This document shows, piece after piece, positions 17,382-37,564 of a DNA stretch of 64,000 nt (positions within the stretch are counted from its first letter, which is position 1; every line of letters begins with the position of its first letter). The notes below the pieces were generated by a model. That model was given only the letters and a program-made list of their open reading frames with translations, was not told the origin of the DNA and searched no databases. Origin of the DNA: a virus; the IMG/VR virus record IMGVR_UViG_3300049595_004693, positions 14,804-78,803 of that record. One strand, 5' to 3'. The translations under genes and the position numbers were made by a program.

Positions 17382-18263
17382 TTATTTTTTACCGTATTGT
17401 GCCAACATATAGTCAGAATAACCCTCATTAGACTCATAGGAATAGCGGTCATAATCGTCCATCACGTCACGACTGCCAAAGGCACGCGCGGCCAATGAAT
17501 CAAGGCTAGTGGTCGCGGTTAAGACTAAAGGTTTAATTTCTTGCTGATACACAATGTCATTACCTTCGAATACCGCGTGTGTGTTATCAAGGATTAGCTC
17601 CGGGTGCTCGACTTTCCACTTCATGTCCTTGGCTACGCGCTCGATGATATCGGTAGTGGTTGCAATAACATATGACCTAATAGTGCGGCACCACGCGATA
17701 TAAAGCGACGCGCGACTATCTCGAATAACGTGCGTCGTGCCTCTCTTGTCTTGAATGATCATCGCATAATAGCCTGTAACATTTTCCTCAATAGCTTCCA
17801 TCCCCCCCTTTTCCCAGTACCTAAGAAGAATTTCTGTATCGCAAGTCGTGGTTAGCTTGGACTTTACTTCGTTAGTAAAGTCTTGCACGACTCCGTTATG
17901 AATTAGCGAAACTTTGTTATTCATGAAGGGGTGGGTGTTCTCGATGGTGACATTATTAGTGCTAAGTCTCCCATGCGCCATGAATGATTTATTGCCTTTT
18001 TGCTTCACCTCTCCGAAGCAATTTCGAGTCTTCTCAATGATTGGTAGCTTGTCGGTGCGCGTATCTTGATTTGTGAATTGCAGAGGTTTCCAGTTGAAAG
18101 GCTTAGTGGTACGCTCACCGCTTATGGTGCCGTCCGATCCTAGAACGGAATAACCAAAACCATCCTTATCACTCAAGGCGCAAACTGCGTCGCGCACGCT
18201 ATTGATAAACTTAGAGTTAACATTCAAATTGCTAGCATCAGTCACCGCGAAAATCTTGCACAT
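17382..18263 (-). CDS. class II (Ntn) glutamine amidotransferase
   Basis: N-terminal Cys2 (MCKIF), DGFG, AHGRLST, NTHPF, HNGVV, CDTE. Confidence 0.92.
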   Translation of the reverse strand: MCKIFAVTDASNLNVNSKFINSVRDAVCALSDKDGFGYSVLGSDGTISGERTTKPFNWKPLQFTNQDTRTDKLPIIEKTRNCFGEVKQKGNKSFMAHGRLSTNNVTIENTHPFMNNKVSLIHNGVVQDFTNEVKSKLTTTCDTEILLRYWEKGGMEAIEENVTGYYAMIIQDKRGTTHVIRDSRASLYIAWCRTIRSYVIATTTDIIERVAKDMKWKVEHPELILDNTHAVFEGNDIVYQQEIKPLVLTATTSLDSLAARAFGSRDVMDDYDRYSYESNEGYSDYMLAQYGKK

Positions 18264-18290
18264 AATAAACTCCTGTTATTGTTATGATTA

Positions 18291-19478
18291 TTAAAAAGGC
18301 ATTCCATCGCTACCCGTAGCGTCATATCCGGGCAATGGTCCTCCGTTAATGACCGCGCTAACGCTACCCTGAAGGCTAGGCGACACAATGACTTGCATCG
18401 GTAGCGTCTGCGTGCTCTCCTCATTGTCGTCTAACACTTGATCAACTTCGGAGGACACCTCGGGGGAGAATTTCGCGACACGTTCGCGGATATATCCCCT
18501 CAAAGTCTCCGATGCGCCGACAAGATGCGCCACAACTTCCATGCTATCAACGCTAGACTTAATAGCCTTGCATTGCATAATGCCCTGAAGCAATTCAATC
18601 CAAGATGCGATTTTAGACGCATCTGTGCTCCCACTATGGCCGCGAATCTCAAGCGTGCCGTACTTGGAAAGGCTATGCATATTCACAAACGCGTAACGCG
18701 ATCCCCCGCGCCTAGCGTTAATAGTAGTGGCGCAAAATCGGTTATCCCGGCGAGACTTAGGCAACATGCGCTTAAGAGCCGGGACACAATGAGCGACACG
18801 GTTAGCCTTGAGAGTCACCATGCGGCTAGACTCCGTGCGCATGTCAAAATGCACATGGAGCCCACAAGTACGGTTAACCCAACACCCTAGCTTATTCAAT
18901 TCTGCGCAAACTTTAAATAGCGGCGACATGTCCGACTTTTTAAAGCTAACGCAGATCTCTTTACCATGTGACTCAGTGCCACACTCACACCGACCGTCAT
19001 TGTCTTCTGTTTCTTCCATGCTACACGAGGAGTCATGGGGATTGAGTGATCCGTCATTTTTAATGGTGACAAATTTACTTAATCCTAAACCCCTGATATT
19101 TTTGGCAAACGCATTTTCCCTAGCCTGAGAAGTGAAAAAACACTCGATTTCTACACTAATCCACTCTCCCTCAAACCCCTCGGGATTTTTGGAGCTATAA
19201 ACTACGCGAGATAGCTCTACGATTTGAGAAACGGACCATTGCCCCTCATTACCATATTGATCAAGCCTATCGGCCAACATGTCGACACCTGCGCTGCGTA
19301 AATGCTTGCGATATGTCTGCAATGAACGCTTTATAACGTCCTTAAGTTCATCGGGCAATTCCCCCTTGTAGTTATCAATCAAAAACTTATAGGCGGGATT
19401 GAGGTTGGCGATAAAAGCGGCTTTACGAGAATTTGACATATTAGCAAGCCTCCCATGTTTCAACGGTATTAAATTCAT
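18291..19478 (-). CDS. putative amidoligase (COOH-NH2 ligase, Amidoligase_2-like)
   Basis: SVEIEC, KNDGSL, GKEI, TCGLHVHFD, RYAFVN, GTLEIR motifs; adjacent to the GATase. Confidence 0.88.
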   Translation of the reverse strand: MNLIPLKHGRLANMSNSRKAAFIANLNPAYKFLIDNYKGELPDELKDVIKRSLQTYRKHLRSAGVDMLADRLDQYGNEGQWSVSQIVELSRVVYSSKNPEGFEGEWISVEIECFFTSQARENAFAKNIRGLGLSKFVTIKNDGSLNPHDSSCSMEETEDNDGRCECGTESHGKEICVSFKKSDMSPLFKVCAELNKLGCWVNRTCGLHVHFDMRTESSRMVTLKANRVAHCVPALKRMLPKSRRDNRFCATTINARRGGSRYAFVNMHSLSKYGTLEIRGHSGSTDASKIASWIELLQGIMQCKAIKSSVDSMEVVAHLVGASETLRGYIRERVAKFSPEVSSEVDQVLDDNEESTQTLPMQVIVSPSLQGSVSAVINGGPLPGYDATGSDGMPF

Positions 19479-19629
19479 CCACCAAAGTCAAGGCATATTC
19501 CAAACTCTCAATGCCTTGAATGCTCCAAAGGATTTTGTCGCGATAGGACGCCCTAGAATTGATTTTCTCAAATTGGCTAGGGGATACGACGGCACACTCA
19601 CCTGTTATCAATTTAAAGACAATATACAT
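19441..19629 (-). CDS. hypothetical protein
   Basis: AAGGA SD. Confidence 0.55.
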   Translation of the reverse strand: MYIVFKLITGECAVVSPSQFEKINSRASYRDKILWSIQGIESLEYALTLVDEFNTVETWEAC

Positions 19630-19674
19630 TTTAAATATCCTTTCATTTCAATAGGTTAATTTTTAGAATTTTGA

Positions 19675-20112
19675 CTAAGTGATCACACAGCACTCCTTAA
19701 AACCCCAAACTGTAAAGCCATAGCGATGAATTTGAATAAAAGCGGGTTTATAGGTCACCGACCCGCCATTGAATGAACCAGGTTTACCGGCGGCATCTTG
19801 GAAGTACTTGTCGCAGTCTCTAAAAGCCTTTAGAGCATCTTCCTGGCATTTATAGGCGTCGTTAGGCATGTAATAAGATCCTCCCACTAGGCTAGTAAAC
19901 TTTTCAGGGTTACCAAAGCCCAACACCTTGCGTGGTGCATCATAATCAGAGGCATCATCGGAGACGGACACGATGACCACGCTTCCGTTGTCCGCAGTGT
20001 ACCACAAGAGACTAGGAAGCAATGCGGCTAGTGGTCGATACTTCTCACCGCTTAGAGATAATTCGGAAAGGCTTTTAATGGACTCAATGACTGACTTGAC
20101 TTGATTATTCAT
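19675..20112 (-). CDS. hypothetical early protein
   Basis: Likely start ATG 20112 (MNNQVKSV), just downstream of a sigma54 box. Confidence 0.7.
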   Translation of the reverse strand: MNNQVKSVIESIKSLSELSLSGEKYRPLAALLPSLLWYTADNGSVVIVSVSDDASDYDAPRKVLGFGNPEKFTSLVGGSYYMPNDAYKCQEDALKAFRDCDKYFQDAAGKPGSFNGGSVTYKPAFIQIHRYGFTVWGFKECCVIT

Positions 20113-20125
20113 GATTATAAGGTGT

Positions 20126-20141
20126 TGCATCGAGCGGGCCA
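20126..20141 (-). promoter_or_regulatory. sigma54 (-24/-12) promoter A
   Basis: TGGCCCGCTCGATGCA (GG-N10-GC) pointing into the early operon. Confidence 0.65.
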
Positions 20142-20184
20142 ACACAAAACCTTAATGATATCGCGGAATGCTGAGACGGAATGC

Positions 20185-20219
20185 TGTAAAACTTTCAGGC
20201 AGAGTCTAAGCCTTAGACA
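20185..20219. promoter_or_regulatory. tandem 17-bp imperfect palindromes, candidate enhancer (UAS) of promoter A
   Basis: TGTAAAACTTTCAGGCA-g-AGTCTAAGCCTTAGACA; a related copy lies at 21267-21301. Confidence 0.5.
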
Positions 20220-20228
20220 CCTAGTCCC

Positions 20229-20465
20229 TATATATATATATATATATAAGAATATAATTATAATACATATATTAAGTATTATTAAATAGAATATAATACA
20301 TATTAAGTATAATATAATAAGTATTAAGTAGATATTAATAGTATATAGTAACTATTATTAGTATATAGTTAACTTAACTAATATAAAGTAACTACTAGTA
20401 TATAGTAGCTACTAAGATATATTAAGTATTTATATATAATATGAATCACTTAATAAAAATTAAGT
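20229..20465. repeat. very AT-rich tract with short direct repeats, candidate replication origin
   Basis: (TA)n run, TATTAAGTA x4, TAGTATATAGT x3; non-coding. Confidence 0.5.
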
Positions 20466-20578
20466 GAACTTAGAGAGAGGCTCTAAGAGGATATAAAACA
20501 CTTGAGCGAAAGCGCAAGTGTGTGAAAGGACAGGGGAATGAGAGATGAGAAAAGATGGAGGTACTAGCTCTGCAATTT

Positions 20579-20944
20579 CTATGCCAAGTCCCAATATTCC
20601 TCACCCAATAAATAACTCGACTTGGTAGGATACTCGGTAACACTCAATGTCCCCAACACTTCGGAGTCACCATTGAGATAAAACCTAGTAACCTTATGAT
20701 TTTCAATATAAATTAAACTTGACAACATAGCTTTCTTAGCAATATCAAGTACTTGATTCTCTTGATAAGAGTCAACACAAATAACTAGAATAACACATTG
20801 ACCATTCTGTGTCAAGTATTGCAAAGGTATATTGCAATCTTTAAGCCAATTATAGGCCCATTGAGTAGCCTCTAAGTTAGTAGAACTAGAACGCTCTGAA
20901 CGATTAAGATTTAAAATATATCCTTTATGCTCTAATGCAATCAT
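20579..20944 (-). CDS. hypothetical protein
   Basis: Likely start ATG 20944 with AAAGG SD. Confidence 0.6.
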   Translation of the reverse strand: MIALEHKGYILNLNRSERSSSTNLEATQWAYNWLKDCNIPLQYLTQNGQCVILVICVDSYQENQVLDIAKKAMLSSLIYIENHKVTRFYLNGDSEVLGTLSVTEYPTKSSYLLGEEYWDLA

Positions 20945-20964
20945 ATCATAGCCTTTCGTATAAG

Positions 20965-21117
20965 TCAAGCAGCTATAGACTCATTGTCGACCATGTTGGC
21001 CAACTTGTCAATCTCTAAAGCTAGCAGATTAGCTATCACATAATCGGTAGGACAAGCCTCAAGAGAGTCTCTTAGGGCTTTGATACTTCTGATTAGTTCT
21101 AATACTTCAGGTGTCAT
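20965..21117 (-). CDS. 50-aa helical hypothetical protein
   Basis: Manual translation MTPEVLELIRSIKALRDSLEACP...ESIAA; TTGACT-16-TATCCT upstream. Confidence 0.55.
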   Translation of the reverse strand: MTPEVLELIRSIKALRDSLEACPTDYVIANLLALEIDKLANMVDNESIAA

Positions 21118-21209
21118 ACAATTACCACGATATATCCTTAGGATATCAGGGAATGATATTGAGTCAAGGTTATTTTGTGGACTCTGATAACTCTCATGCT
21201 ATAGGGTAT

Positions 21210-21225
21210 TGCATAGGCAATGCCA
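21210..21225 (-). promoter_or_regulatory. sigma54 (-24/-12) promoter B
   Basis: TGGCATTGCCTATGCA (GG-N10-GC). Confidence 0.65.
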
Positions 21226-21266
21226 GAAATAAACTAATGATAATGCTATGTGTCAATGGAGATTAG

Positions 21267-21301
21267 TGTAGAACTTTTAGGCAGTGTATAGTTCTTATGC
21301 A
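21267..21301. promoter_or_regulatory. tandem 17-bp sites, candidate enhancer (UAS) of promoter B
   Basis: TGTAGAACTTTTAGGCA-g-TGTATAGTTCTTATGCA, at a similar offset from its box as in promoter A (57 vs 59 bp). Confidence 0.5.
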
Positions 21302-21314
21302 CTCATAGTTTTTA

Positions 21315-21496
21315 TGCAAGGACTATACCACAATAGCTTGGCATATATCTTGCAATAAAACATTTTGATTGGCAAGGGAATTGCTATAGCAAGAATCGTG
21401 CCAGATTAGAGCTGGCATAGAGCTTGCAGGGGGAATGCTGTGTGCAAGTATAGTGCCAGGCATGGGGATTGCAGGGGGGGTGCAAGAAGTGTGCCA
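21315..21496. promoter_or_regulatory. array of eight sigma54 -24/-12 boxes in mixed orientation
   Basis: Starts 21315(-), 21339(+), 21370(+), 21388(-), 21413(+), 21443(-), 21458(+), 21481(-); all fit (T/A)GG(C/T)A-N6-TTGC(A/T). Confidence 0.85.
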
Positions 21497-21586
21497 GGGG
21501 GGGGGTAGGGTACTTTTTACGGGGATTAAATATCGATAGTGATATCCAACAGATAAGTCATTTTTCTCACAAATTACCGTGTTACC

Positions 21587-21596
21587 TAACAAGTTA
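21587..21596 (+). promoter_or_regulatory. late-promoter motif TAACAAGTTA (leaderless HNH gene)
   Basis: Exact 10-mer with ATG 5 nt downstream. Confidence 0.75.
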
Positions 21597-21600
21597 GTGT

Positions 21601-22515
21601 ATGGCAACATGGATGAAAAAAGAATGTTCTAAGTGTAAGAAATCACTAAGCTATGGCATAGTGAACACCTACTCTAACAGCTCAGTATACGCTATTAATA
21701 AGCAGCTAAAGCCCTGGAACGGCTCTATATGCCCTCGATGCAATAGAGAAAAGAAAATAGCCGAGAAGAAGCTCGTAGTACTTGAGAACATAAAATGCCA
21801 CACCTGTCAATCAGAATTTACCCCTCGCAATCGTCAGGCAAAGTATTGCTCTTCTAGATGTAGAGTGGTCATGACTATGCGGCGTAAAATAAAGCCGACT
21901 AAGCCAAAAAACGACTGTGTAGTGTGCCTAACACCCAACTCGGCCACGAGATTATATTGCGGCAGCCAGTGTCAGTCAAAAGCTGCATACCTTAGAAACA
22001 AGGTAGAACGAGTTTGTATCGAGTGTGGCAACTCTCCCGCTAAAAGCAAATACTGCTCCGCTACGTGTAGGTCAAAAGCTAACAGACGGCCCGCGAAACC
22101 CAGATCGCATAAAGTAAAAAAATGTGTTACCTGCGGGTCGGAGTTCCGCCCTCGCGGAAAGCAGTTATATTGCGATAATCCCTGTCGCCGACCAAAACCA
22201 TCTATAAATCGAGAGAGTCTTAGAAAGTATAAAAAAATAGCTAGGAAGAAAAGAAAGCTGTGGGAACGTAGGGCATGTCCTCGTTGGGTTAAAGGAAGCG
22301 ATTTATTAAAAATAGAGGCTTCTAAGCCTGGGCCAGAATATCATCTAGACCACATCATCCCACTAAAGCACCCTTTGGTGTGTGGACTTCACGTACCCGA
22401 AAATCTCCAATGGCTCAAAAAAGAAGAGAATGAGTTTAAGAACAATAAGTGGGACGGCACAGAGACTAACGAAAGTTGGAAGGTGGAGTTTGAGAAGTCC
22501 CGTTCTAAGTCGTAG
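21601..22515 (+). CDS. HNH endonuclease with tandem Zn-finger repeats
   Basis: Repeated CxxC...YCSxxC units; HLDHIIPL...CGLHVPENLQ...EN..KNN. Confidence 0.9.
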   Translation: MATWMKKECSKCKKSLSYGIVNTYSNSSVYAINKQLKPWNGSICPRCNREKKIAEKKLVVLENIKCHTCQSEFTPRNRQAKYCSSRCRVVMTMRRKIKPTKPKNDCVVCLTPNSATRLYCGSQCQSKAAYLRNKVERVCIECGNSPAKSKYCSATCRSKANRRPAKPRSHKVKKCVTCGSEFRPRGKQLYCDNPCRRPKPSINRESLRKYKKIARKKRKLWERRACPRWVKGSDLLKIEASKPGPEYHLDHIIPLKHPLVCGLHVPENLQWLKKEENEFKNNKWDGTETNESWKVEFEKSRSKS

Positions 22516-22541
22516 TCAAATATTCACTCAACTAACTCAGT

Positions 22542-22835
22542 TTACAAATCCACCACAGCGGCCTTGTAGCTCACAAACTCATATGCGGCCACACCCTGTT
22601 CATTAACACCTCTGAGCCGATACTCCACTTGTTTTATGAAGTCCATACTAGGGATTCTATCTGAGCCTACGACGAGCCTAGGCACTATGGGCGCCAGTAT
22701 AGGCACAACTAGCGTAGGCCCGCTGAAGTCCTGCACGTAGATAATATGCTTAATGCTCGCCACTTCGCCATCTTCGGTGTAATGTACGGGAGGGCCGAAT
22801 AGTATTTTCGTGCTACGTCCACCTCTCATAAGCAT
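22542..22835 (-). CDS. hypothetical protein
   Basis: Last ORF of the minus-strand block. Confidence 0.55.
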   Translation of the reverse strand: MLMRGGRSTKILFGPPVHYTEDGEVASIKHIIYVQDFSGPTLVVPILAPIVPRLVVGSDRIPSMDFIKQVEYRLRGVNEQGVAAYEFVSYKAAVVDL

Positions 22836-23805
22836 CTAAAATAATCTCATCAGCCAGCTCAAGGTCTGGCTTCTCCGGTAAGGAGCTTCTCTGTTGAGCA
22901 GACACAACGTCGACCAACCCCTGCTCAATTACCTCGGCCACTTGCTCATAAGGAAGCTGTCCCGTTTTAATCTTCGTAAGAAGCTCCCTGTCAGGACGAG
23001 GGAATGTAATATGCCCCGTACGCAGAAGCTCAACAGCCTGAGAATTTACGCGTACAGCGTGGGATAGAGCCTTCCAATCCACGCCTCCAGCAAGATGAGC
23101 CTTCTGAGCCCGCTTGCCATATTCGTTTAGCATCTTATTGGTAATCTCTAAAGCATACTTCACCTTGGCGTGAAACGGAATTTTGCGCCCGTTTATGTGA
23201 AGATGAGGGGCGTCAGTAGCGCCTTTAGGTCCACGACACATAATGATCTCAATAAGGGGTGTTTTTTCTAATGAGATGAGATCGGATGATTCCCTAATCA
23301 GCCCATTAAGCCACGCCACATTCTGCTCTAACGTGGTGTCTAAATCTAGAGTTTCGAGAAGCTCCGCCGTACGCTTTAAAGCGTCCATTCTGGAACCTTT
23401 AATCCCGTATTTGGCGGCTTGCTGCCTAGCATACCCCATAAAGGCCGAGACGTTTTTAGAAATAAGGCGGTGCCTATTGTAGTATATCTCGTGCATTACC
23501 TCAAAGCTCTTGCCCGCGTCTAGTGTTGTTTGTCGATATCCAAATAGTACATCTAACGCCACAGTTTGACCTTGCGTCAGAAGCTCTAAATAACGCGCTA
23601 GGCTAAAATACTCTTGGTCTACATCTTCCGCTGTGTTCCTTTCCGCGTGCTCTTTTGAGCGGGAAATAGAAATGGTTGGTCGCGAGCGACCTAAGAATAG
23701 CTCTTTTTTAGATGGGATATATACTCCCTTATAATCTTTGTCAGACTCCGGAGTATTGGTGCCATATAAGTGGCTCCCAAAGAGCATTTTAAAACACAGA
23801 TTCAT
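22813..23805 (-). CDS. Pol-beta superfamily nucleotidyltransferase (RlaP-like phage family)
   Basis: FGSHLYGTNTPESDKDYKGV (GS...DxD); DWKALSHAVR; S.LPEKPD C-terminus. Confidence 0.88.
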   Translation of the reverse strand: MNLCFKMLFGSHLYGTNTPESDKDYKGVYIPSKKELFLGRSRPTISISRSKEHAERNTAEDVDQEYFSLARYLELLTQGQTVALDVLFGYRQTTLDAGKSFEVMHEIYYNRHRLISKNVSAFMGYARQQAAKYGIKGSRMDALKRTAELLETLDLDTTLEQNVAWLNGLIRESSDLISLEKTPLIEIIMCRGPKGATDAPHLHINGRKIPFHAKVKYALEITNKMLNEYGKRAQKAHLAGGVDWKALSHAVRVNSQAVELLRTGHITFPRPDRELLTKIKTGQLPYEQVAEVIEQGLVDVVSAQQRSSLPEKPDLELADEIILDAYERWT

Positions 23806-29523: not shown

Positions 29524-29743
29524 CCTCTAACTCCTTCATAAACTTAGTCATCTTTTTGGTGCATGTGGACCAATCTTTGGTTTGCTCTACACATCCTAGT
29601 CTATACGATTCTGCAGCACTTGTCAAGTGGGCTCTTTTAAGATTCTCTGGATCGTATATGATCGAGTGGGCGTATAAATCTAGCAACACCCCCACACTAA
29701 ATGCCGCGGTCAATCTTACGGATGTCGGAATCGACCATTTCAT
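29510..29743 (-). CDS. small membrane-anchored protein
   Basis: N-terminal hydrophobic segment. Confidence 0.55.
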
Positions 29744-30680
29744 GTATCATCTCCTCAAATGAAATCAAAGGCTCCCAACCCAACACATTGAGAGCTTTTG
29801 AGGCGTCCCCTAAAAGAACATCTACCTCAGATGGACGCTTTAGCGTTTCGTCAACAACTACGTAATCTCTCCAATTAAGGTCAACTGAGGAAAATGCTAC
29901 GTCTAGCAAATACTCTACGGAGTAGGTACACCCGGTGGCTAAAACATAATCATCCGGCCGTTCGTGTTGTAGCATTTTCCACATTCCCGATACATAATCT
30001 ACAGCATGTCCCCAGTCTCTATGGGCGGAAAGATTTCCTAAGTGCAGCTTATCTCTGCGCTTTCTTAAAATCTCCGCCACCGCCTTGGTCACTTTGCGAG
30101 TTACAAACTCTTCACCCCTTCGCGGCGACTCGTGATTAAAAAGGATCCCACTACAAGCAAATAATCCGTAGGACTCTCTATAGTTCTTAGTGATCCAGTG
30201 TGAAAATAACTTAGCACATCCGTATGGAGATCTAGGATAGAACGGCGTGGTCTCATTCTGAGCAGGTTCCTGTACTTTTCCATACATCTCTGAAGAAGAT
30301 GCCTGGTAAAATTTAATGTCGGCATTCTTTAGGTCGGTGCCATGAACCGTGCGAATAGCTTCAAGTATACGTAGTGTTCCTACTCCAGTAATGTCTGCAG
30401 TAAGTACCGGGGTATTAAAGGAGGTGCCCACGTGACTTTGCGCGGCCAAGTTGTACACCTCTTGAGCACCTGAAACCTCTAGAGCGTTGGTAAGCGAGCC
30501 GCTGTCAGTGAGGTCGGCTGAAATAAATTTAATATCTTTCTCAATATGTGCAATATTATCTAGATTGGGCCGGGACGCGCGTCGCACAGTACCAAAAACT
30601 TCATAATTTTTTTGCAAGAGAAGTTCAGCCAGATATGACCCATCCTGACCTGTAATTCCAGTAATCAATGCTTTTTTCAT
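29697..30680 (-). CDS. gmd: GDP-mannose 4,6-dehydratase
   Basis: [49 protein letters not shown]. Confidence 0.97.
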
Positions 30681-31873
30681 TCTGTATATCCTAATAGTAC
30701 ATCAACATATTCATGAATTGCGTAAGCCGGTAGTTTGTGAGGAGGAAGCCCTATATATAATCCAGCGCTATGCACTCTTTCCGCCCCAGGAAGCGTATCC
30801 GCTGGAGGGAATACAAAAGTGGTTTCTTGAAGCATGGGCTGTCGTAAGAAGTTGCCGCTCACGATAGGGCGATTATCCATGCCATTCTTAAGAAGATAGT
30901 CAGAATATTTCTTTCTATCATAATCTGTCATGAAAGGAAATCCAAACCAGGCGGCCGTGACACCGCGAGAAGCCAGAGGAAAGGTGAGCTGTCCCTTGAA
31001 TCGGTTGTCGGAAGTGAGAGCTTCGATCAGCGCTTCGCGATTATACACCCTGGCTGCATTCATTTCTTCAATCTTCTTAAGCTGCACCACCCCAATCGCA
31101 GCGTTGATGTCGGTTGGTCGCAAATTAAATCCAGCTTCTAAAAACAAGAATCTAGGGTCTACGTCCGGAGCATATCGTGTATACATTTCTTTTAGATCTT
31201 GGCGAAGATCACGCACCCACCCGTGACTCCTAAGCATTAAAAGCAACGAATAGATTTGATGGTGATTAGTAACGACGTATCCGCCCTCACCCGTTGTGAT
31301 ATGGTGAGAAAAGTAAGAGCTAAACGTACCCATAGCCCCAAACGTGCCTAGCTTTTTGTTATTAAACGAAGAGCCCATACTTTCGCAGGTGTCTTCAATT
31401 AGCAGCAGTTTATTATCACTTACAAATTCCATAACGGAATCCATGCTAGCGCTGTTGCCTAAAATATGTACCGCTAAAAGAGCTTTAGTTTTATCTGTGA
31501 GTTTTGAACGAGCGGAGGCTAAGTCGATGTTTAAAGTTCTATGATCAACGTCTACGAATACAGGTTTAAGACCTAGTTGAATAATAGGAGCGACCGAGGT
31601 GGCCCAAGCGACGGCTGGCACAAGTACCTCGTCTCCGTTTTCTAGCCTACGCTCTTTAGGAAAATAGGAGCTTTTGGTGGCGGCCAAAGCCAGTAAGTTA
31701 GCGGAGGATCCGCTGTTTACCATGATGCAATACTTAGCTCCTACGTATTTCGCAAACGCTTCTTCCATCTCTTTGGTTTTAGGTCCCATAGTAAGCATCC
31801 CGCTTTTGATGACAGAAATAGCGGCTTCTTTTTCGGCTGCAGTAATCGTATCGAACGCCATTGGGAATTTCAT
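30677..31873 (-). CDS. DegT-family PLP enzyme, ColD-type GDP-4-keto-6-deoxymannose 3-dehydratase
   Basis: [32 protein letters not shown] with His in place of the Schiff-base Lys, RSHGW. Confidence 0.85.
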
Positions 31874-32955
31874 TTTAGCAGAATCTCCAGAGATTTGCCA
31901 TAAGCTAATCCATTTAGCGGATTAAACCCGACAACATTACCTTCATAACGATTAGAAGGAAAATCATCGAATAAAAACTCATCGCGCATAACCACACTCC
32001 AATCAATCTTACTAGAGGCAGGGGAAGCGGATTCTGTGATGAGAGAGGCTGAATGCAAATCTGCATGAGCACTAGTATGCAGTACATAATTAAAGAACTT
32101 TTGATTAACTACTCCGGATTCTTTCATAAGAGCTGCAAACATTGGATTTGCTGAGGAGTAACTCTGTGCAGCTACAAATCGCATACCAAGTTTTGCAAGT
32201 TTACTTTGAAAAGCTTTGATTATGAGTTGATAACCAACCATACAAGTGTATTCAATAAAATAAAGTCGACGATTTTTAGCGTGATATGTAATAGGTGCTA
32301 TAAAAAGCAAAAACCAACCTTCTAAAAACAGTTTTTTAGTAAAGATCTTTTTAAAGATTTTGCGGTTGGTAACTAAATAGGCGGCTGCCAACACTCCGCT
32401 AAAAAATACAGCATCCACTCCAGTAGAAATAACTCTTTGTTTACCGTAAGGAGTATTATTATATACAGTATAATTATTACGAATAAGCTTAATTACGGCT
32501 CTAATAAAATGACGTTTTACCTTACGCGATATTGGACCTTGAGTGATACCTAGACATACTCCAAGCACAGCTTCAATTGGAGTAGTAACATCTCCACCTC
32601 CACTATCGTTGCGTGTAAATACGCCATATTTATCAATAAAATTAGAAGAACCGCTAATAAGTGCTGGAGCAGGGTTGGCCCAAACCATAGCGCCGTGTCG
32701 AATAGCTTGATGGTCTCCTACCCCATGAATATTAGAAAAAGTTCTACGGGTTATATAGGAAGCTCCTATAGTTTTGCCCGGACGAACATAATCAGTAGCC
32801 ATAGATCGCAGTTTTAAAATATCTTTATAAATAACAGAAAGATCAGGACGAGCTGTATAGTTGCCAAAAGGAATACGAGCTTGATATATGCGATAAAAGC
32901 CAACTAATGGAATTAAAATAGCCTTGAGTGGTAAAGTTAAATAAAACCAAAACAT
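31870..32955 (-). CDS. hypothetical membrane-associated protein in the sugar cluster
   Basis: 361 aa with several hydrophobic segments; no motif recognised. Confidence 0.7.
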   Translation of the reverse strand: MFWFYLTLPLKAILIPLVGFYRIYQARIPFGNYTARPDLSVIYKDILKLRSMATDYVRPGKTIGASYITRRTFSNIHGVGDHQAIRHGAMVWANPAPALISGSSNFIDKYGVFTRNDSGGGDVTTPIEAVLGVCLGITQGPISRKVKRHFIRAVIKLIRNNYTVYNNTPYGKQRVISTGVDAVFFSGVLAAAYLVTNRKIFKKIFTKKLFLEGWFLLFIAPITYHAKNRRLYFIEYTCMVGYQLIIKAFQSKLAKLGMRFVAAQSYSSANPMFAALMKESGVVNQKFFNYVLHTSAHADLHSASLITESASPASSKIDWSVVMRDEFLFDDFPSNRYEGNVVGFNPLNGLAYGKSLEILLK

Positions 32956-33386
32956 TAGAAAAAAGTTCCTCTTTTGGAGTCTGAAATAATTTTAATACGT
33001 AAATTAATACTATTTTGCAAAGGCGCGTTAGGAAATTCTTTGTCTAATACGTGCGATGAAGTATGCGCATAATATACATCAAACTCTTTGAATAAACGAA
33101 TACCTAATTTATAGTTATATTCTACAGTTTGATGACTTCCTTTAGCCATTAGTGTGGTAACGTTATTTTCATATAATAAATATGTGTTAATAGAAATGTC
33201 TAAATTTAGATCCAGTCTAGATTCTGGTGCAACAGGAGACCACGGATGTCGAGTAACCCCATAGTACCAAAAATGTTCTAAATTAAGATTATCCACTTTA
33301 AAAAGTGGGTCGGCGTTGGCTGGCAGCGACGGTAATAAGATTAAGATAAGAAGAAACAAATTTTTGATACGATCTTTCAGTTTCAT
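32955..33386 (-). CDS. exported protein, possible small outer-membrane beta-barrel
   Basis: Signal peptide (ANA/DP), amphipathic strands, C-terminal Phe; start uncertain. Confidence 0.6.
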   Translation of the reverse strand: MKLKDRIKNLFLLILILLPSLPANADPLFKVDNLNLEHFWYYGVTRHPWSPVAPESRLDLNLDISINTYLLYENNVTTLMAKGSHQTVEYNYKLGIRLFKEFDVYYAHTSSHVLDKEFPNAPLQNSINLRIKIISDSKRGTFF

Positions 33387-34371
33387 ATAGCCGCTTAGCC
33401 TCTTTCCCAAACGATTCTCGTTTGTCTTTATCAGTATACAACAAATCTAGCTTTTTGGCAAGCTCTTTGTAGTTTTCATTAGGAAATATATACCCAGTCT
33501 TTCCGTCAAGCACCGCCTCATCAAGCGCCCCCACATCAGAGCTAATTACCGGCTTACCTAGAGCCTGCGCCTCAATGACTACAGTAGCAATAAGCTCGTC
33601 TCTAGAAGGCATAATCAGCGCGTCGCAGTGCTGCAGTACGGCGGCTTTGGAAGACTCGTTGAGCACGCCAGTAAATTTTACAGACTTAATACCTCTAGTG
33701 TTAAGAGTTTCATTAAGTTTATTAAAGTAATTTTGATCTAGAGTTCTGCCAGAGATAATAACCTTGACATTAGTTCGCACCTCTTCCATAGCTCGTATGA
33801 GAACATCCTGCCCCTTACGAGGCTCGATGCTTCCTAGCTGCAAAACGTAGAGCGCTTCGGGGTCTTTCTCAAAAGGAACAACGTAGTTGTCGCTAGGTTT
33901 TATTGTAGTACCTGTATAAATTACATTAGCCTTATCTAAATCTATAAATCTTGCGTAGTTTTTTACGGACCATTTAGAAGGAAATATCGTGAACGTGGCC
34001 ATCCTAAGAGCGTTTCTAATAATTGGATTGTTGGTTGTCATCTGAACGCCAAACTCAGGCTCGTGTATTCCCCAAAGTACGGGTGTCCTAGCTGCGTTAA
34101 CGCCATAAATACAGTTATACCCAATAAGTGTGTTCACTAATGCAACATCAACTTGTTGGGCTAGGGCGTAGCTGGCCGAAGGGTCGGTGAGAATGCTTGG
34201 AATTACTCTAACCACTACTCCCATCTTTTCGTATAGTTCTTTTTGTGGTCCGTCTGACGCAGACACCACAAATACTTTATAACCTAGCCGGACTAGCTCA
34301 GAGCTTAAATTAAAGCATGCAGCAGGGACGCCACTGAAGGCAAGCTCATTTACGATCATTAAGATTTTCAC
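33298..34371 (-). CDS. GT-B glycosyltransferase (GT4-like)
   Basis: MKILMI...SGV, GSIEPRKGQD, PSRDE..ATVVIEAQALGKPVISSDVG. Confidence 0.93.
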   Translation of the reverse strand: MKILMIVNELAFSGVPAACFNLSSELVRLGYKVFVVSASDGPQKELYEKMGVVVRVIPSILTDPSASYALAQQVDVALVNTLIGYNCIYGVNAARTPVLWGIHEPEFGVQMTTNNPIIRNALRMATFTIFPSKWSVKNYARFIDLDKANVIYTGTTIKPSDNYVVPFEKDPEALYVLQLGSIEPRKGQDVLIRAMEEVRTNVKVIISGRTLDQNYFNKLNETLNTRGIKSVKFTGVLNESSKAAVLQHCDALIMPSRDELIATVVIEAQALGKPVISSDVGALDEAVLDGKTGYIFPNENYKELAKKLDLLYTDKDKRESFGKEAKRLYETERSYQKFVSSYLNLITVAASQRRPTF

Positions 34372-35767: not shown

Positions 35768-36122
35768 CGTAAAGTCCATATCAAAAAAATTTAATAAGTC
35801 TATGGAGATTGTGGAGCTTCGCGCTCAGTTAGCGGAAGCGCACGCCATTATTACCGAATTGCGCAACAAGCTTGCGCTACGACCCGCCGTAGAGGAATCT
35901 CTAAAGACTCCCGAAGAAGTTCTATGTCAGGTAGAGATTGAAAAGCTCAGGCAGTTAGCTGAGCATCGCCCTCTCTCTCCTCCAGAAACTAAGCAACTTG
36001 AAGTGTACATCAAGATGCTTTATTTAATCCGCTCTAGCGCTCCTAAAACATTTGACGGCTCTGTAAAAGATCTAGCTTCCATAGAAGAGGCTGAGCTGCT
36101 TAACTTGGCCAAGTTGGACTAG
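35760..36122 (+). CDS. putative terminase small subunit
   Basis: Helical 120-aa ORF directly upstream of TerL; call is positional only. Confidence 0.45.
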   Translation: MDDVKSISKKFNKSMEIVELRAQLAEAHAIITELRNKLALRPAVEESLKTPEEVLCQVEIEKLRQLAEHRPLSPPETKQLEVYIKMLYLIRSSAPKTFDGSVKDLASIEEAELLNLAKLD

Positions 36123-37564
36123 TGGAACACCCTACGCAAGGACCTAAAGTTTCTCAAAAAGTGGCTAGAGACATTCTCTGGTCTAAGGGAAACATCGCGT
36201 GGAAGCTCGACCCTCTTCAACAAGAAATCCGCCAAGCGTATTATAAATCCTCTAATAAAATTAACGTATGGTTGATGTCGCGCCGCCTAGGGAAATCACA
36301 CCTACTCTGCGCGCTGGCCATTGAGCAATGCATAAAGAAGCCTGGCAGCATTGTAAAGTATCTTGCTCCCGAAGGTAAGCAAGTTAAGACTATTATTAAG
36401 CCCATTATCAGCGACCTGACCTCGGACTGCCCTAACGATATTAGACCTCAATTTAAAACTCAGGAAATGCTCTATCGCTTTCCTAATGGAAGCGAAATTC
36501 ACTTAGCAGGATCCGATGGGGGAGGAGCCGAGAAGCTTCGAGGTACTAAATCAGATCTATGCATTGTTGACGAAGCCGGTTTCTGTAATGAGCTTAAGTA
36601 TGCCGTAAGAACCATTTTACTCCCGACCATGCTCACTACTGGAGGGAAGATGATTCTGTCTTCAACTCCCCCTTCCGAGCCTGCTCACGAATTCTTGGAC
36701 TTCATTGAAGAGGCTGATGCTAAAGGTACCTTAATTAAAAAAACAGTGGATGAGTGCCCAAGATACACACGGAATTTTATTGAGGCGGAAATCGTGTCTC
36801 AGTATCCTTCTGGTAGACAGGACCCTGAGTTTCGACGAGAATACTTAGTTGAAATTTTAAAGGACGAAAATCTTTCAGTTATCCCAGAATTCACAGAAGA
36901 ATTAGAAAAAAAGATCGTTATTGACGCACCGCTACCACCTTATTATGACGCCTATGTGGCAGCTGACTGGGGAGTATCCGATCTTACAGTGGTATTATTC
37001 GCCTATTTTGACTTTAGAAATTCTAGGGTAGTGATTTTAGATGAACTAATTATGAATGGCGCTAAAATGAACACCTCGGTGTTGGCGGCAGGCATCAAGG
37101 CAAAGGAGGCGGCTCTTTGGCATGATCAATACACCAAAGAACCGAAACCTATATATATGCGCGTTGCAGATAATAATATGCTGCTTATTCAGGATATGCA
37201 AGCTCTACACAATCTAAATTTTCTAGCTACTGAAAAGACGGATAAGCATGGCGCCCTTAATAATTTAAGAATTTTGCTACAGGGAGAGAGAGTCCACATT
37301 CACCCTCGCTGCACCACTCTAAGAACACACCTTAAGTACGCCACTTGGGATAAGAATCGACGCACTTACAAACGTAGTGGACAACACGGTCACTACGACG
37401 CTATTGACGCACTAAGCTATCTTATTAGAAACATCGTCTGGTCGCATAACCCCTATCCTAAAGAAAGCTTTGGGGAGAACGTCTTTATAAATGAGTCGAA
37501 AAAACCAGAGGTTACGGCTGCAGTGACTCAGATTAAGAACATATTCCGCGTGCGCAGAGGTTAA
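36122..37564 (+). CDS. terL: terminase large subunit
   Basis: Walker A SRRLGKS, LRG, Walker B IVDEAG, SSTP, FRREY, nuclease ADWG and YDAIDA. Confidence 0.95.
   Translation: MEHPTQGPKVSQKVARDILWSKGNIAWKLDPLQQEIRQAYYKSSNKINVWLMSRRLGKSHLLCALAIEQCIKKPGSIVKYLAPEGKQVKTIIKPIISDLTSDCPNDIRPQFKTQEMLYRFPNGSEIHLAGSDGGGAEKLRGTKSDLCIVDEAGFCNELKYAVRTILLPTMLTTGGKMILSSTPPSEPAHEFLDFIEEADAKGTLIKKTVDECPRYTRNFIEAEIVSQYPSGRQDPEFRREYLVEILKDENLSVIPEFTEELEKKIVIDAPLPPYYDAYVAADWGVSDLTVVLFAYFDFRNSRVVILDELIMNGAKMNTSVLAAGIKAKEAALWHDQYTKEPKPIYMRVADNNMLLIQDMQALHNLNFLATEKTDKHGALNNLRILLQGERVHIHPRCTTLRTHLKYATWDKNRRTYKRSGQHGHYDAIDALSYLIRNIVWSHNPYPKESFGENVFINESKKPEVTAAVTQIKNIFRVRRG

Follow-up and report, generated by a model that had tools for sequence, protein, structure and literature searches.

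The closest described counterparts of the sites considered in this study are the enhancer-dependent promoters of sigma-54 (RpoN), which have conserved elements at -24 and -12 and the consensus TGGCAC-N5-TTGCW (PMC12316311, PMC4591121). In vivo the sigma-54 holoenzyme occupies such promoters in an inactive form, whatever the growth condition (PMC4591121). Bacterial promoters of this kind are single, are directed at a gene, and are paired with an activator and its upstream site. Sigma-54 is scarce, amounting to about 100 molecules per E. coli cell.

Pseudomonas phage YuA carries three annotated -24/-12 late promoters (GenBank AM749441), whose dependence on sigma-54 is credited to Ceyssens et al. 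(2008) in a later preprint (bioRxiv 10.1101/2023.10.13.562163). YuA provides the likeness of a lytic phage, lacking an activator of its own, that relies on host sigma-54 promoters, but its promoters are three dispersed, single, co-directional sites inside the late region. On the + strand of YuA, the strand of its genes and promoters, nothing comes within one mismatch of the strict box, and YuA has no array.

Phage packaging sites offer a second comparison. Lambda has arrays of R sites in cosB, HK97-type cos sites come with an adjacent HNH gene, and cos boxes are specific to each small terminase. The locus described below resembles cosB in having several boxes of roughly 16 bp, in both orientations, by a GC-rich element, with an HNH gene adjoining the array in this phage and, in many IMG/VR contigs, with a position just upstream of a terminase operon. 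It differs in that its sigma-54-like motif is common to phages with unrelated packaging genes, and in that it lies, in this phage, 14.6 kb from the terminase. A third comparison is with P2- and 186-type phages, which have single face-to-face pairs of sigma-70 promoters, at least 60 bp apart and controlled by a repressor. The likeness there is to convergent, mutually exclusive promoters at the boundary of two gene blocks, and the difference is that the present array consists of several sigma-54-type pairs a few bp apart. I know of no case of decoy titration that concerns a sigma factor or that is borne by a virus. Decoy arrays that titrate transcription factors (PMC8599769) provide a likeness in that clustered, high-affinity sites could lower the free pool of a scarce DNA-binding protein.

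The array considered here comes from an uncultured lake phage. By the window I mean the whole stretch of 64,000 nucleotides that was analysed, bases 14804 to 78803 of a 78,803-bp IMG/VR contig with a rated completeness of 93%. The array is the same as bacterial sigma-54 promoters in its core sequence and exact GG-N10-GC spacing, and the flanking preferences are identical as well. Unlike those promoters, it has 8 to 10 sites, in both orientations, within about 200 bp, often head-to-head 2–5 bp apart, with a poly-C run at one edge and no activator gene. The original prediction knew of no described phage element of this kind, and a full-text search of the literature bears this out, having turned up no paper that describes sigma-54 sites in phages as clustered or opposed.

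The boxes of the array and the reliability of the sequence

The array was predicted from eight 16-mers, each with its position and strand, and all eight are present as described (Table 1). The pattern TGGYA-N6-TTGCW is matched exactly by seven of them, and the GG-N10-GC spacing is kept in all eight, as well as in a ninth, isolated box and in a tenth, degenerate one. Comparison of the boxes confirms that their spacers differ, as had been claimed. The boxes are mostly inverted and irregularly spaced, with start-to-start distances of 15 to 31 bp.

Table 1. Positions of boxes, homopolymer runs and neighbouring features in the window
Feature	Position	Strand	Sequence and remarks
Amidoligase and class-II glutamine amidotransferase	17382-19478	-	gene pair
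10-mer direct repeat	20164-20186		CGGAATGCTG, copies 13 bp apart, just upstream of the 156-aa gene
AT-rich tract	20225-20460		230 bp, about 11% GC, with (TA)10 and 4–5 TAGTATATAGTAAC-like repeats, each roughly 20 bp long; separated by 110 bp from the ninth box, on its downstream side; ahead of the 156-aa gene, about 850 bp from the array
Ninth box, isolated, exact	20571-20586	-	TGGCATAGAAATTGCA; co-directional; spans the stop codon of the 129-aa ORF
Tenth box, degenerate	21210-21225	-	TGGCATTGCCTATGCA; co-directional; -12 element with one mismatch; about 90 bp ahead of the 50-aa ORF
Box 1	21315-21330	-	TGGTATAGTCCTTGCA; faces the 50-aa and 129-aa ORFs; in gene direction, the final box of the array
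Box 2	21339-21354	+	TGGCATATATCTTGCA; back-to-back with box 1, 8 bp between them
Box 3	21370-21385	+	TGGCAAGGGAATTGCT; head-to-head with box 4
Box 4	21388-21403	-	TGGCACGATTCTTGCT
Box 5	21413-21428	+	TGGCATAGAGCTTGCA
G5 run	21429-21433	+	directly after box 5
10-mer, one-mismatch copy	21431-21440		GGGAATGCTG, a copy of CGGAATGCTG between boxes 5 and 6
Box 6	21443-21458	-	TGGCACTATACTTGCA
Box 7	21458-21473	+	AGGCATGGGGATTGCA; AGGCA variant (A for T before GG), GG-N10-GC intact, ending in TTGCA
G7 run	21474-21480	+	directly after box 7
Box 8	21481-21496	-	TGGCACACTTCTTGCA; first box in gene direction, touches the long homopolymer run
G9 run	21497-21505		reads as poly-C on the flanking genes' strand; bounds the module on its upstream side
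Putative late-gene 10-mer	21587, 35402, 37562, 39855, 44802, 46269, 48542, 49327, 50296, 59666	+	TAACAAGTTA
HNH endonuclease	21601-22515	+	PHROG 1271; long N-terminal region of repeated CxxC pairs
GDP-sugar genes	29697-34371	-	GDP-mannose 4,6-dehydratase, DegT-family PLP enzyme, GT4 glycosyltransferase: a phage-borne GDP-sugar pathway
Large terminase	36122-37564		

Exact boxes number eight in the 64-kb window, as against 0.51 expected, and none of 100 dinucleotide-preserving shuffles reaches that number. In the scan of the genome for clustering that had been proposed along with the prediction, the eight exact boxes, seven in the array and the isolated one at 20571 (-), fall inside about 930 bp, and there are no others in the whole 78.8-kb genome. 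The isolated box lies about 110 bp ahead of a very AT-rich repeat tract. A further box claimed at 20126-20141 reads GGCCCGCTCGATGC, which is a poor match, and it is left out of account here.

Three G runs on the + strand (G5, G7 and G9) interleave with the array. Homopolymers of G/C directly follow three of its boxes, 5, 7 and 8, at about -10 to -4, a position where they should hinder the melting of DNA.

Contigs in Logan from four other lake or freshwater runs, with different study codes, match the array region at an identity of 99% or more. Among the runs listed as containing this DNA there is no RNA run. Three of these contigs, X3 (20159-21505), X5 (20265-21585) and X2 (20516-21438), show no differences at all in the array, and since their study codes differ, the array sequence is real and stable and not an artefact of assembly. 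No population variation inside the array was seen among the four runs, so they provide no within-species footprint. Contigs X3 and X5 bridge the array, and X5 bridges the G run as well; other Logan contigs end at the G run, at low depth. Such breaks do not count as evidence of physical genome ends, given the low depth and the inability of Logan contigs to show ends. The suggestion that the array coats a genome end finds no support here, in that Logan contigs read through both array and G run and the array is internal in the contigs of most relatives.

Related arrays in the phage lineage and in other genomes

Relatives of the phage were picked by their portal protein, which gave 42 at 46–63% identity, and the 15 of these with records of 46–86 kb were examined. 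The neighbouring nucleotidyltransferase was tried as a guide to relatives and discarded, as its viral and metagenome matches (59–62%) have that gene alone in common and are not syntenic.

Clustering in related phages, which the original prediction had proposed as a check, was seen. At least three boxes within 300 bp occur in 10 of the 15 large relatives, a tight pair in four, and none in one, and the box hits over all 15 come to 94, as against 8 for a reversed control pattern. Every cluster falls in a gap among small genes, most of them co-directional. There is one array per genome, and its place, where a gene block begins, is conserved. A C run of at least 5 stands at the upstream edge, in gene direction, of 10 of the 11 arrays that were read (at least 6 in 8 of the 11); the runs of the relatives range from 5 to 13 nt, reaching 13 in three lineages.

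Orientation is less regular. Of 47 boxes over the lineage, 29 point the same way as the gene block, a weak bias (one-sided p = 0.07), and the co-directional boxes include the first box in 9 of 13 lineages and the last, nearest the downstream genes, in 10 of 13. Orientation is thus close to symmetric, and this counts against reading the array as plain promoters, which predicts a strong bias.

The array of one relative, G026, overlays that of the phage box by box, down to a shared end, ...GTGTGCCA-G(n)-TAGGG(G)TAC. Consensus positions are kept between the two and spacers have diverged, in accord with the earlier claim that the boxes are selected sites and not recent duplicates. The alignment is supporting and not independent evidence, because it is anchored on the boxes. 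In a second relative, G014, two co-directional boxes lie about 1.2 kb upstream of the same amidoligase/amidotransferase pair (L410; 36% and 32% identity). Flanking small genes are otherwise not conserved among the arrays of relatives. The sites have been kept by descent in the phage lineage while their spacers drift, and the box module is older than its neighbour genes.

Two relatives have contigs that both start and end inside the box array: G018 (1-156 and 85919-86035) and G021 (18-84 and 81643-81709), with end overlaps of about 135 bp and 140 bp, respectively. The overlaps look like assembler k-mer overlaps, from circular assemblies broken at poly-C, rather than terminal repeats.

To see the module beyond this lineage, IMG/VR was scanned for head-to-head pairs (TGGCA-N6-TTGC, 2–30 bp, GCAA-N6-TGCCA), and at least 120 loci were found besides this phage. 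Among the 120 matches listed, 66 have at least three strict boxes within 300 bp and 45 have at least four. Control patterns with a spacing one base more or less (N5/N7) matched 75 and 61 loci, and not one of these 136 has more than two boxes. The controls are of equal base composition and give no arrays; the arrays are therefore tied to the sigma-54 spacing.

The positions left free by the search follow the sigma-54 consensus as well. In 298 unique boxes from the listed IMG/VR arrays, T makes up 64% at position -27, C or T 100% at -21, G 66% and A 30% (96% together) at -20, purines 73% at -19, and A or T 85% at -10. The extended consensus YTGGCACGr-N3-TTGCW fits both the boxes of the phage array and the free positions of these 298.

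The arrays also have an anatomy in common. Across array families, the commonest arrangement is of head-to-head neighbours with a gap of 2–5 bp (51 of 73), while for back-to-back neighbours the commonest gap is 10 bp (24 of 59), and the two gaps combine to give units of about 46–47 bp. Runs of at least 5 G/C occur at arrays with four times the density seen elsewhere in the loci. They are polar, with C on the 5' side of the array in 25 of the 32 families that have a run (p = 0.002), and this arrangement is without exception among runs of at least 9 bases; a run is lacking in 23 of the 55 array families.

Many IMG/VR contigs have the array between divergent gene blocks. In about 30 of the 120 loci listed, in podovirus-like contigs, it stands 200–600 bp upstream of a conserved gene encoding a protein of 127–185 aa, which is followed by genes for endolysin, large terminase and portal. 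The protein (L036:8665-9057 and about 30 other IMG/VR loci) has N-terminal AT-hook-like motifs (KRGRGRPRK / GRPKGD) and no PHROG match, and is probably a small terminase of undescribed type.

Cellular genomes were searched with a stricter pair pattern, which in 596 Gbp of bacterial and archaeal sequence occurs in 49 places, mostly perfect hairpins without further boxes. The matches in Actinomycetota and Bacillota, perfect hairpins with no further boxes nearby, are set aside as a different thing. Array-like cases are confined to eight MAG contigs (Flavobacterium, Sediminibacterium, Saprospiraceae, Methylococcaceae, Planctomycetales, Gemmatimonadota, one gammaproteobacterial and one alphaproteobacterial), and in six of these eight MAGs, which are candidate hosts, a sigma-54 DNA-binding domain was found. 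Three contigs of one Bifidobacterium jacchi genome (L153, L173 and L179) carry near-identical 36-bp perfect palindromes, TGGCATGTTGGTTGCC..GGCAACCAACATGCCA. That genome is without rpoN, and the palindromes, a repeated hairpin element, do no more than imitate the pair pattern.

Among cultured phages, blastn of the array region gave no DNA match, tblastn of the portal gave a best match of 28% identity, and no isolate carrying the box module was found in those searched. The large terminase of the L036 family is likewise without a close cultured relative. No tRNA genes that might serve as a clue to the host were found in the phage.

Gene setting and candidate binder

Early genes and those for nucleotide metabolism and replication form one long block on the minus strand and the structural genes a block on the plus strand, and the array sits inside a 480-bp gap within the minus-strand block. 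Upstream of it, in gene direction, are the GDP-sugar operon and genes for thymidylate synthase, a pyrophosphatase, a phosphoesterase and the nucleotidyltransferase. Nearest downstream are two small ORFs (50 aa and 129 aa) and then the AT-rich tract, and the downstream block goes on to encode the amidoligase, the glutamine amidotransferase, ribonucleotide reductase, an exonuclease, Erf and a primase-helicase. Every box of the array has a gene of the same sense somewhere downstream, the HNH gene rightward and the 50-aa and 129-aa ORFs leftward. The GDP-sugar pathway suggests modification of a host surface polysaccharide, and the operon gives no more than a weak pointer, and not an exclusive one, to a Gram-negative host. 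The presence of a glutamine-using gene pair downstream of boxes for a nitrogen-associated sigma factor, in this phage and in G014, may be a coincidence.

Between the array and the start of the HNH gene there are 105 bp. This gene is probably a mobile element inserted next to the module, since it is the only plus-strand gene within the minus-strand block and no HNH gene is found next to the arrays of relatives. Before it stands one of the 10 copies of the 10-mer TAACAAGTTA, all on the plus strand, that occur in the window (0.25 expected); the other nine are in the structural-gene region. The copy at 21587 ends 5 nt ahead of the HNH start codon. From this distribution the 10-mer is probably a phage-specific late-gene signal, and mRNAs that begin from it may be nearly leaderless, given its closeness to the ATG. 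With a late-gene motif of its own, the phage would not need sigma-54 for its late genes.

The AT-rich tract could be a DNA-unwinding element or origin, or else a battery of AT-rich promoters. Relatives lack a tract as AT-rich; G014 has a dip to 18% GC at the same distance from its boxes (931 bp). No initiator gene adjoins the array among its neighbouring genes.

What binds the boxes has to be sought among proteins of the phage and of its host. The phage genome has no sigma-54 gene and no match at E<=1 to the sigma-54 activator domain (PF00158), the 30 other array-bearing records have only sub-threshold, generic AAA+ matches, and no upstream activator site was recognised near the phage array. 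A host activator is possible. A phage protein shared by all array-bearing phages was considered as the common binder and rejected. Profiles of all protein families that recur beside arrays gave, in this phage, only the large terminase, a weak match to the portal, a family of 543–578 aa proteins, matched by the 765-aa ORF of the phage, and a marginal match to one small ORF (E = 0.003). The profile of the AT-hook family of 127–185 aa finds nothing in the phage genome. I favour the host sigma-54 holoenzyme as candidate binder, because the free positions match its consensus, the spacing is strict, the motif recurs in phages of unrelated gene content, and no phage protein family beyond generic functions was found to be shared. 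That the boxes are sigma-54-type sites under selection is supported by these comparisons of sequence.

Several other identities were tried and dropped. The array does not appear to be an RNA gene, as Rfam at E<=1 gives nothing in 19500-23000, nor a set of stem-loops, as the spacers of the paired boxes in three head-to-head pairs proved on a check by hand to be non-complementary. The C run was considered as a Rho-loading (rut) site and rejected because the skew of C over G is inconsistent across arrays. A function as roadblock or insulator was rejected since sigma-54 sites within E. coli genes leave the expression of those genes undiminished (PMC4591121), and since many arrays lie between gene blocks that diverge, so that no read-through arrives to be stopped.

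What the array may do

The reading that I prefer, though only tentatively and in the knowledge that it may well prove wrong, is of a capture array for the host sigma-54 polymerase, working as an activator-gated, two-way cluster of promoters. The array would dock host sigma-54 holoenzyme on the phage genome, and several strong sites in both orientations would enable a single infecting genome to capture the holoenzyme quickly, in the form of silent closed complexes. These would be fired by an activator that is not recognisably encoded by the phage, namely a host enhancer-binding protein acting from solution or, alternatively, an unknown phage early protein. Firing would lead to transcription leftward into the downstream gene block; the opposed boxes would send it rightward, into the HNH gene and, in antisense, the upstream block. 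Head-to-head pairs with a gap of 2–5 bp occlude each other; such a pair would have room for one polymerase at a time and so might act as a two-way toggle. Against the capture array count these same occluding pairs, the missing activator gene, the homopolymers that hinder melting, and the phage's own late motif.

A broader possibility, which I think unlikely though by no means far-fetched, is that the combination of polar poly-C and palindromic -24/-12 pairs constitutes a dedicated sigma-54 polymerase trap, present in many phage lineages. The trap might end in either of two ways. The cell could be stripped of sigma-54 and the regulon silenced, or a phage early protein of a new kind could take the place of the AAA+ activator, making of sigma-54 a switch from early to middle transcription.

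It is also possible, and I would again call it unlikely while giving it serious weight, that the boxes never fire. Replication of the phage would then produce hundreds to thousands of near-consensus sites that outcompete those of the host and silence its sigma-54 regulon, with its genes for envelope stress, RNA repair, motility and nitrogen. Such a sponge would explain the nearly symmetric orientation, the closeness of every box to consensus, the palindromic pairs, which double the number of sites per unit length, and the absence of an activator gene from all 31 records, and the G/C runs after three boxes would disfavour melting. Titration of transcription factors by decoy sites is an established principle (PMC8599769), and E. 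coli has only 135 to about 250 sigma-54 sites, with inactive holoenzyme bound (PMC4591121), so that phage copies could plausibly outnumber them. But a sponge needs no fixed genomic place, no polar C run and no co-directional last box, all three of which are seen. There are only 2–10 sites per genome, and the isolated co-directional boxes at 21210 and 20571 resemble ordinary promoters.

More doubtful is a likeness to sigma-54 promoters that is superficial only, the array being bound by a phage-encoded or other host protein as a packaging (cos/pac), genome-end, partition or replication-initiator site. The position of the array upstream of the putative small terminase, in about 30 of the 120 IMG/VR loci listed, is that of a lambda-type cosB. 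Many arrays are close to contig ends, the G/C runs at their edges resemble the GC-rich elements of cos, and the HNH gene with its late-gene motif lies close by in this phage. However, the same motif occurs in phages with unrelated gene content, and the 127–185 aa family is absent here. The large terminase is far away, and cos or pac adjacency to it is thus not seen; the HNH gene is missing beside the arrays of relatives. The free positions fit sigma-54 in particular. As for genome ends, X3 and X5 read through the array, X5 through the G run too, and the overlaps at the ends of G018 and G021 appear to be of the size of assembler k-mer overlaps.

Very improbable is an origin of replication primed by transcription, in which boxes facing the run yield poly-G RNA, a primer in a stable R-loop, or the box at 20571 fires into the AT-rich tract to give the primer, as in the origins of T7 and T4, ColE1 and mitochondrial CSBII: RNA leaving the array by way of the run would be G-rich in the same 25 of 32 run-bearing families, all runs of at least 9 bases share a side, the tract with its (TA)10 and repeats lies just past that box, and replication genes are downstream, but 23 of 55 array families are without a run, relatives are without an equally AT-rich tract, and GC skew does not turn at the array.

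Returning to sigma-54 itself, no other bacterial sigma factor leaves polymerase waiting on DNA in a locked state. Hardly any studies have dealt with its part in phage infection, YuA with its three ordinary promoters being the only worked case that I found. The elements of the module are known sigma-54 promoter elements, and what is new is their conserved, polar, two-way array on phage DNA. That a dense, two-way module without an activator gene is conserved within a lineage, recurs in more than 100 unrelated viral contigs and is rare in bacteria suggests that phages exploit the locking of sigma-54 polymerase. They might use it to capture a scarce form of the polymerase for a timing switch of their own or to remove that polymerase from the host. 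If this is true, the module would be a compact natural part for titrating or gating sigma-54 transcription, and either outcome would be a new route by which a phage takes over its host.
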